Of a stretch of DNA of 19,664 nucleotides, positions 12,216-12,243 are shown in pieces (the stretch's first letter is position 1; each line of letters opens with the position of its first letter). The stretch is from a virus. Taxonomy: Monodnaviria; Loebvirae; Hofneiviricota; Faserviricetes; Tubulavirales; Inoviridae. The notes beneath the pieces are model-generated. The model ran no database searches, was not told where the DNA came from, and saw only the letters and a list, made by a program, of their open reading frames with translations. Made by a program: the position numbers and the translations under genes. The DNA lies in the IMG/VR virus record IMGVR_UViG_2529292909_000007, positions 1-19,664 of that record; one strand, 5' to 3'.

Positions 12216-12243
12216 ATTTAACATAATATACCTTATACGCACT
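12216..12243 (-). other. dif-like XerC/XerD recombination site (attachment junction of the filamentous prophage)
   Basis: Reverse complement AGTGCGTATAA-GGTATA-TTATGTTAAAT versus E. coli dif GGTGCGCATAA-TGTATA-TTATGTTAAAT (recalled): XerD arm 11/11, central 5/6, XerC arm 9/11. Confidence 0.65.

Follow-up and report, generated by a model that had tools for sequence, protein, structure and literature searches.

The dif site is needed for the separation of dimeric chromosomes, and it is also a landing pad for filamentous phages that carry toxins. Among the integrative mobile elements exploiting Xer (IMEX), the CTX, VGJ and TLC classes have been defined in a previous report (PMC4246890). CTXphi of Vibrio cholerae, an element of the CTX class, is an inovirus that resides at dif and has no integrase of its own, and it shares these properties with the phage described here. 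It has been reported that CUS-1 of E. coli O18:K1:H7 and Ypfphi of Yersinia pestis are dif inoviruses with inverted XerC/XerD pairs, tandem copies and a dif that is rebuilt at one end (PMC4266046). The UPphi inoviruses of E. coli and other Enterobacterales are also found in tandem at dif, with internal repeats that match only the first ~15 bases of dif, and UPphi901 was described as closest to IKe and I2-2 (PMC7307601). The words 'attP' and 'hairpin' occur 0 times each in that report (Shapiro & Putonti 2020).

In this study, we analysed a stretch of DNA of 19,664 nucleotides (IMG/VR record IMGVR_UViG_2529292909_000007), referred to below as the window, and compared a dif-like site in it with these systems. 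The dif of E. coli K-12 reads GGTGCGCATAA TGTATA TTATGTTAAAT (PMC2731167). Window 12216-12243 reads AGTGCGTATAA GGTATA TTATGTTAAAT on the minus strand (28-mer at these positions, AGTGCGTATAAGGTATATTATGTTAAAT), and 25 of its 28 bases are identical to dif. It consists of an 11-bp XerC arm, a 6-bp centre and an 11-bp XerD arm near the consensus, with 9/11, 5/6 and 11/11 bases identical to dif, respectively; the differences lie at 12232, 12237 and 12243. With up to 3 mismatches allowed, this was the sole dif match in the window, and no match was obtained in 200 shuffles. A search at up to 7 mismatches gave no further dif-like 28-mer in the window or in L006, the 21-kb source locus, and a search of the same DNA with XerC-arm patterns gave no second site either. 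The canonical K-12 dif lies at NC_000913.3 1590750-1590777, with the yneL pseudogene on one side and hipA on the other, and the site at 12216-12243 occupies the same yneL-hipA interval, as a single copy within L006. The 60 nt next to it on the yneL side are identical in K-12, and an identity of ~99% to thousands of E. coli genomes runs from 12000 and ends at 12242/12243. Among the K-12 dif neighbours, truncated ydeS', ydeT and yneL are in the window, and hipA' and hipB are found past an IS1 in the source contig. The stop codon of a secretin gene starts at 12519, with 275 nt separating it from the site. A preliminary description of this DNA had reported a 28-bp site with a perfect XerD arm and a slightly divergent XerC arm and centre, about 275 bp from the secretin stop, within the K-12 dif neighbourhood and at the boundary of a filamentous prophage at chromosomal dif. 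All of this agreed with our counts and comparisons, the site being a host/phage hybrid at the K-12 dif position with phage genes to its right. The features are as follows.

10319-12215, minus strand: host flank with ydeT (10319-11467), the yneL pseudogene remnant (~11800-12002) and intergenic DNA; Pfam Usher/PapC_C; K-12 gene order.
12216-12226, minus strand: XerD-binding arm (TTATGTTAAAT), host-derived, 11/11 to dif, continuing into the 60 nt identical in K-12.
12227-12232, minus strand: central region GGTATA, 6 bp; 12227-12231 common to host dif and beta attP, 12232 phage-type.
12233-12243, minus strand: XerC-binding arm AGTGCGTATAA, phage-derived, an arm of the beta-type attP.
12244-12518, minus strand: non-coding att-proximal module separating the secretin gene from attP, with ~90-93% identity to the region before the beta hairpin in strain 700481.
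12519-13798, minus strand: secretin gene (pIV-like); Pfam Secretin 2e-25 and Secretin_N; frame split at 13535 in the window.
13801-14925, minus strand: assembly ATPase pI/Zot; Pfam Zot 1.2e-24.
14943-15230, minus strand: pVI-like minor coat protein; Pfam DUF2523 1.7e-07.
15251-16945, minus strand: candidate pIII-like adsorption protein, 564 aa, by position and size; no Pfam match.
18280-18627, minus strand: ssDNA-binding protein (G5P-like); Pfam Phage_DNA_bind 2.2e-12.
18643-19174, minus strand: C-terminal remnant of gene II (gene X region), cut by IS1; Pfam G2P_X_C 5.6e-17 on the L006 ORF.
19175-19664, plus strand: left end of IS1, running off the window; read directly from the sequence, with the DDE_Tnp_IS1 gene and the junctions in L006.

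Two other elements lie to the left of the host flank. Window 1-5387 is a fragment of a tailed-phage tail-fibre region that is 99.8% identical in many E. coli genomes. It carries genes for a DUF6645/SASA protein, a Gin/Pin-type invertase (2741-3313) and tail-fibre assembly, and inverted repeats of 86 nt at 3384-3469 and 4631-4716 look like those of an invertible segment. The early region of a Mu-like element (5580-9910) adjoins truncated ydeS (9955-10305), with imperfect inverted repeats of 36 nt at its two ends (5580-5615 and 9875-9910). Its ORFs encode a repressor-like HTH protein (9168-9713), a Ner-like HTH_35 protein (8754-8984), a MuA-type transposase (6664-8751) and a MuB-type ATPase (5780-6589).

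The prophage genes to the right of the site are all on the minus strand and run from the secretin through Zot/pI, the pVI-like and pIII-like proteins, small ORFs and the ssDNA-binding protein to the C-terminus of gene II. The core genes of Inoviridae were represented by the Zot, Secretin, DUF2523, Phage_DNA_bind and G2P_X_C domains, with gene II truncated by IS1. No recombinase domain was found by Pfam in the phage ORFs that are retained in the window, part of this phage having been deleted, and none is annotated in complete relatives (the units of strain S21EC and the free circle L138). As an element at dif without its own integrase, the prophage belongs to the IMEX. The pIII-like gene contains a repeat linker at 15603-15890 (12/18-nt period, 13 overlapping copies, family D1), an array that recalls the glycine-rich linkers reported to be variable in the g3p of IKe and UPphi. 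The source contig (GCA_000249675.2 AIFZ01000020.1, locus L006) is 99.94% identical to the window and carries an intact secretin gene of 426 aa. A secretin pseudogene was therefore rejected, as the frameshift is an A5/A6 homopolymer difference at 13535 from the source assembly. The window and the source assembly differ by one-base indels at 5841, 6654, 9078, 13535, 17378, 17711, 17804 and 19480, 7 of the 8 in A/T runs, and by a 2-bp substitution at 19599-19600, which suggests variation of the sequencing-error type.

In L006, the far end of IS1 abuts hipA at codon ~103, followed by hipB and an autotransporter gene. No 9-bp target duplication was found at IS1 in L006, which fits an IS1-linked deletion. 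The remainder of hipA, the regulatory region of the phage and the N-terminal portion of gene II were lost through IS1, and so was the hipA-side junction, as the deletion fused gene II to truncated hipA. Since gene II is incomplete and there is no second att site, the prophage should be able neither to replicate nor to excise, and it now appears to be defective and fixed in place. The preliminary description had expected a second, canonical dif on the other flank. None was found past IS1, where hipA codon ~103 is joined directly to gene II via IS1, and in intact relatives this flank never carries one; a host XerC arm followed by an 11-nt phage spacer is present there instead.

We then compared the prophage with its relatives. 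It is a mosaic of three blocks with different nearest relatives. A prophage in E. coli O158:H23 has 86% identity to the morphogenesis block, the tandem prophage at dif in strain S21EC has 85.5% nucleotide identity to the ssb and rep block, and a small satellite-like element of strain 700481 has ~90-93% identity to the att-proximal module. Homologues of the att-proximal module were present in 68 of 5426 E. coli genomes and in a free 7.4-kb circular inovirus. The O158:H23 prophage (L003, NZ_CP076709, 8184-16209) lies between sanA and yeiS and adjoins an IS110-family transposase, and no dif-like site was found at this locus. One virion module thus seems to travel with two different integration strategies. 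Against deposited phages, pI reached at most 37% amino acid identity, the best matches being gut 'Inovirus D_HF' records, and the C-terminal fragment of gene II reached 50.6% to If1; a DNA search of deposited phages gave trivial short matches only. IKe and I2-2 were not among the matches listed for the pI of the window or of S21EC (nearest gut inoviruses, at most 37-40%), and no match of CUS-1 or Ypfphi to the window pI or gene II fragment was found in the phage collection. Filing the phage under UPphi or CUS was dropped, as no link to IKe/I2-2 or CUS appeared among the matches listed.

The free circle (L138, NZ_CP195780.1, 7439 bp), deposited as a 'plasmid' of E. coli A37, is the complete circular genome of an inovirus and encodes coat, pI, secretin, gene II and G5P. 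It carries an alpha-type attP hairpin, described below, the XerC arm of which is the canonical GGTGCGCATAA. The satellite-like element is ~3.6 kb in length and forms tandem arrays at dif (L005 25187-32099, L008 20017-34488 and L009 28479-40294), with 4 copies in strain cM8a and up to 24 matching places in some genomes. It encodes gene II, ssb, an 87-aa ORF and a 201-aa multi-HTH protein, and has no morphogenesis genes. The 201-aa protein adjoins the att region and showed only generic HTH domains, with no match to DUF3653. In its organization, the element resembles the RS1/TLC-type satellites of Vibrio.

Two attP hairpins, designated alpha and beta, were found in these relatives. One or both were present in the dif arrays of S21EC, 700481, cM8a, JNE112863 and EC12, in three IMG/VR contigs and in the free 7439-bp circle. 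Alpha reads AGTGCGCATAA TGTGAYACGCG TTATGTTGAAAAGGCC...loop...GGCCTTTTTACACATAA CGCCA TTGTGCGCACT, and beta reads AGTGCGTATAA G[A/G]TATATGCCG TTATGTTGAAT CGGGCGCGGCG...loop...CGCCGCGCCCG ATTTACACATAA CGCTC TTGTACGCACT. Each consists of two inverted dif-like sites with central regions of 11 nt and 5 nt, which is the architecture of CTXphi attP(+) as given in PMC4246890. Where both hairpins were present, beta lay between the att-proximal module and the XerC arm of alpha, ~40-90 nt apart. The gene-sense strand of beta folded at -37 kcal/mol (z -6.2), and the EC12 precursor region that contains beta folded at -46 kcal/mol (z -7.8). An alignment of ten hairpin variants gave 37 consensus pairs, 7 of them with compensatory changes; the covarying pairs include XerC-arm position 7 (C-G in alpha, T-A in beta) and central positions 1-2 (TG/CA in alpha, GA/TC in beta). 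The forked-hairpin attP in (+) ssDNA was thus seen in relatives, and the window retains the XerC-arm half only, with the partner site absent. A residual hairpin was sought on the (+)-sense strand of window 12205-12520, and the fold was not significant (z -1.08). Paired alpha and beta hairpins together with a rewritten dif centre may be undescribed, as judged from a partial literature search.

The parentage of the 28-bp site was determined by comparison with K-12 dif and these hairpins. Window 12216-12231 (XerD arm and TATAC) equals K-12 dif and is of host type. Window 12227-12243 (XerC arm AGTGCGTATAA and the first central base G) is identical to site 1 of the GG-type beta hairpin in EC12 and IMG/VR, and the arm at 12233-12243 is identical to beta-hairpin site 1 of L005, L008, L132-L134 and L136. 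On the plus strand, position 12232 is A in K-12 and C in both the window and the GG-type beta attP. The bases that the preliminary description had taken for degeneracy are therefore an exact copy of a phage attP arm and not decay. A T at arm position 7 is also found in the plasmid cer site. Since 12232 is phage-type, the crossover lies within TATAC, at 12227-12231. The cut by XerC falls where its arm meets the centre, here at 12232/12233, and XerD cuts the other strand at the boundary on its own side, here at 12226/12227 (PMC4246890). After an ordinary CTX-type exchange by XerC with canonical dif, 12232 would still carry the host base, so that the phage base found there points to a crossover on the XerD side. 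The window junction does not have the phage XerC arm and host centre that an XerC-point crossover of the CTX class leaves, 12232 being phage-type. The window crossover thus appears to fit the XerD cleavage point and not the XerC one. Of the CTX-like integration by XerCD at dif that had been proposed for this site, the core was supported, and the window crossover was found on the XerD side. These results indicate that, as read from its parental sequences, the 28-bp site is a true chimera of E. coli dif and a filamentous phage attachment site. A phage-host hybrid dif is a known kind of event, and this one has an unusual crossover point.

Related strains showed both junctions of such prophages. 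On the hipA side, the alpha centre directly followed the host XerC arm in every array examined (GGTGCGCATAA joined to TGTGA...), and this alpha-type junction was seen in S21EC, 700481, cM8a, 2012C-4221 and EC12. On the yneL side, two states were found. In one, AGTGCGCATAA is joined to TGTATA TTATGTTAAAT (S21EC, Z1323CEC0015 (L135), L134 and EC12), which fits a crossover at the XerC point with a rebuilt 28-bp site, as for CTXphi and Ypfphi. The rebuilt yneL-side site of these relatives is presumably a functional dif, and an intact beta hairpin lies near it in EC12 (GG beta), L134 and JNE112863. In the other state, the beta XerC arm is followed by G(G/A)TATA and the host XerD arm, with no remainder of beta and no alpha arm. 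It was seen in the window, 700481, cM8a and 2012C-4221, with GG in the window and GA in the other three strains. The arrays of 700481 and cM8a contain GA beta hairpins together with the GA product site, and this match shows that the central bases come from the phage. The mini-element of 2012C-4221 is gene-less, ~320 bp in length, and keeps no intact beta hairpin. Five product-state sites were seen in all, from at least two independent events in the same register. An exact scan of metagenome contigs and IMG/VR for the chimeric 28-mer gave no match.

In 2012C-4221 (L010, 10963-15335), the remainder of an alpha hairpin, the att-proximal module and a beta arm lie beside the chimeric dif. Its XerD-side flank is unlike that of K-12 (ATGGTGGG...), with a ~4-kb oxidoreductase/decarboxylase cluster before yneL, and Z1323CEC0015 has a similar flank. 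This cluster may be another dif-associated island.

From these comparisons, we propose that the site is the yneL-side junction of a dif-integrated inovirus prophage, that a secondary event on the XerD side made the chimera, that IS1 later caused a deletion, and that the site serves as dif; we give this reading a probability of about 0.6. The inovirus would enter chromosomal dif using host XerC and XerD. The alpha hairpin would integrate first, with the crossover at the XerC cleavage point, so that the hipA side would keep the host XerC arm with an 11-nt spacer and the 28-bp site would be rebuilt on the yneL side. Afterwards, duplex beta site 1 would lie ~184 bp from the rebuilt dif as a direct repeat. 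A second Xer event would then join beta site 1 to the rebuilt dif at the XerD cleavage side; XerD might act first, as it does when FtsK drives dimer resolution, and the two sites might lie on sister chromosomes. The ~184 bp between the sites would be lost and the phage base would stay at central position 1, so that the recombinant 'bottom' strand would read exactly as the window site. EC12, with a rebuilt dif and an intact beta, would keep the precursor state. IS1 would later have deleted the DNA from hipA to gene II. A second Xer event on the XerD side is thus the likely cause of the window crossover. Against this reading, the hairpin content of the window phage is inferred from relatives, its own attP and hipA-side junction having been deleted, and in the att-proximal module GA-type relatives are ~90-93% identical, GG-type relatives only ~84% across a short stretch. 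In addition, the XerD arm of duplex beta site 1 is poor (TGCCGTTATGT). At a distance of 184 bp, recombination within one chromosome is sterically demanding, a short-loop problem that an exchange between sister chromosomes would avoid. In the CTX literature, 11-bp-spacer sites in duplex form are regarded as unsuitable for Xer recombination (PMC4246890). Since the hipA-side junction is gone and the 11-bp spacer is unsuitable, the chimera is the only plausible XerCD site at the locus and is probably the one dif at work in this strain.

Other routes to the same bases were weighed against this proposal. The beta hairpin of (+) ssDNA could have entered, by CTX-type XerC exchange, a dif that already read GGTATA or GATATA, in which case the chimera would be the regenerated target. 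In CTXphi, the bases at central positions 1-2 set target specificity (PMC4246890). These positions are base-paired and covary in the hairpins of the E. coli phages (TG/CA in alpha, GA/TC in beta), so that beta matches a GRTATA dif and not canonical TGTATA, and the periodic arrays of cM8a and 700481 fit unit boundaries at alpha or beta equally. We regard this route as unlikely, since the first GRTATA dif would still need an XerD-side crossover or a mutation, and every E. coli dif seen with a GRTATA centre adjoined a beta arm. When one genome per species was searched, the matches listed for a GRTATA-centred dif were from distant phyla, with no Enterobacterales among them. Duplex beta site 1 could also have recombined directly with canonical dif, by an XerD-first and then XerC exchange of the TLC type. 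Its anatomy, AGTGCGTATAA G[AG]TATA TGCCGTTATGT, is that of a TLC attP as given in PMC4246890 (a good XerC arm, TATA common with dif and a degenerate XerD arm), and the crossover interval of 12227-12231 abuts the XerD cleavage point. Such an exchange would leave a reciprocal junction of the host XerC arm and the beta centre (GGTGCGCATAA + G[AG]TATATGCCG), which was absent from 5426 E. coli genomes and metagenome contigs; the best full-length BLAST matches to this query (~85-88%) were known alpha-type junctions, and all hipA-side junctions seen were alpha-type. No DUF3653/XafT-like protein was found by Pfam in the window ORFs or the satellite proteins. With neither the XafT factor nor the reciprocal junction of the TLC class, we consider this exchange improbable.

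Simpler histories of the site fared worse. A single T-to-G change would suffice to turn an ordinary CTX-type product into the GG variant, by a later point mutation at central position 1. The changed base is, however, the base of the GG-type beta attP, and three other strains carry the two-base GA, which matches their own beta hairpins in 700481 and cM8a; coincidence is unlikely, and we hold this explanation to be very improbable. Among proteobacteria, dif is less conserved in its XerC arm than in its XerD arm, and the outer positions of the XerC arm vary (PMC2731167), as would be needed for a chromosomal dif that had drifted with no phage contribution and merely adjoins the prophage. We rejected such natural drift as hardly credible, because 12227-12243 is identical to a phage attP arm, host identity ends at 12242/12243, and phage homology runs on for 275 bp beyond the site.

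In this E. coli strain, dif appears to be partly of phage origin and locked in place by an IS1 deletion. The strain comparison indicates that the attachment sites of E. coli inoviruses are CTX-like hairpins, of which there are often two, and that integration can alter the central bases; in Vibrio, such bases decide which phages integrate later. If this holds true in E. coli, it would extend the rules of the cholera phages and explain why some dif arrays grow and others are frozen. It is also conceivable, though doubtful, that the two attP hairpins differ in specificity and that prophages edit the host dif 'allele' and so control later superinfection. If so, alpha (TG) would target canonical dif and beta (GA/GG) would target a dif rewritten by a prophage, and the window chimera would resolve dimers, refuse alpha-type phages and stay open to beta-type ones.

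As in TLCphi, beta site 1 combines a good XerC arm with a degenerate XerD arm and is homologous to dif in the XerD-proximal part of the centre, and the window crossover is on the XerD side; the group differs from TLCphi in that no XafT/DUF3653 was found and the reciprocal junction is absent. The likeness of the window group to CUS-1 and Ypfphi lies in dif integration, site pairs and arrays, as likened by description. The alpha attP (AGTGCGCATAATGTG...) would look exactly like the internal repeats of UPphi. Unlike UPphi901, the window and S21EC phages had no IKe or I2-2 among the matches listed for pI. The closest correspondence is with CTXphi. Relatives of the window phage share with it an inverted dif-like pair with long (11-12 nt) and short (5-7 nt) centres, a forked hairpin in (+) ssDNA, a crossover on the XerC side, a rebuilt 28-bp site, tandem arrays and satellites, and membership of the phage group in the CTX class is supported. 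CTXphi differs in host and genes and in its hairpin loop, which is much longer (~90 bp between the sites, compared with ~40-50 nt in the E. coli phages). Many of these E. coli phages also carry two hairpins with different central bases, unlike CTXphi, and at central position 1 the window junction retains a phage base that is not expected from a simple XerC exchange with canonical dif. The mechanism itself is known, and this locus is a well-documented instance of it; what may be new here is the pairing of alpha and beta hairpins, together with the rewritten central region.
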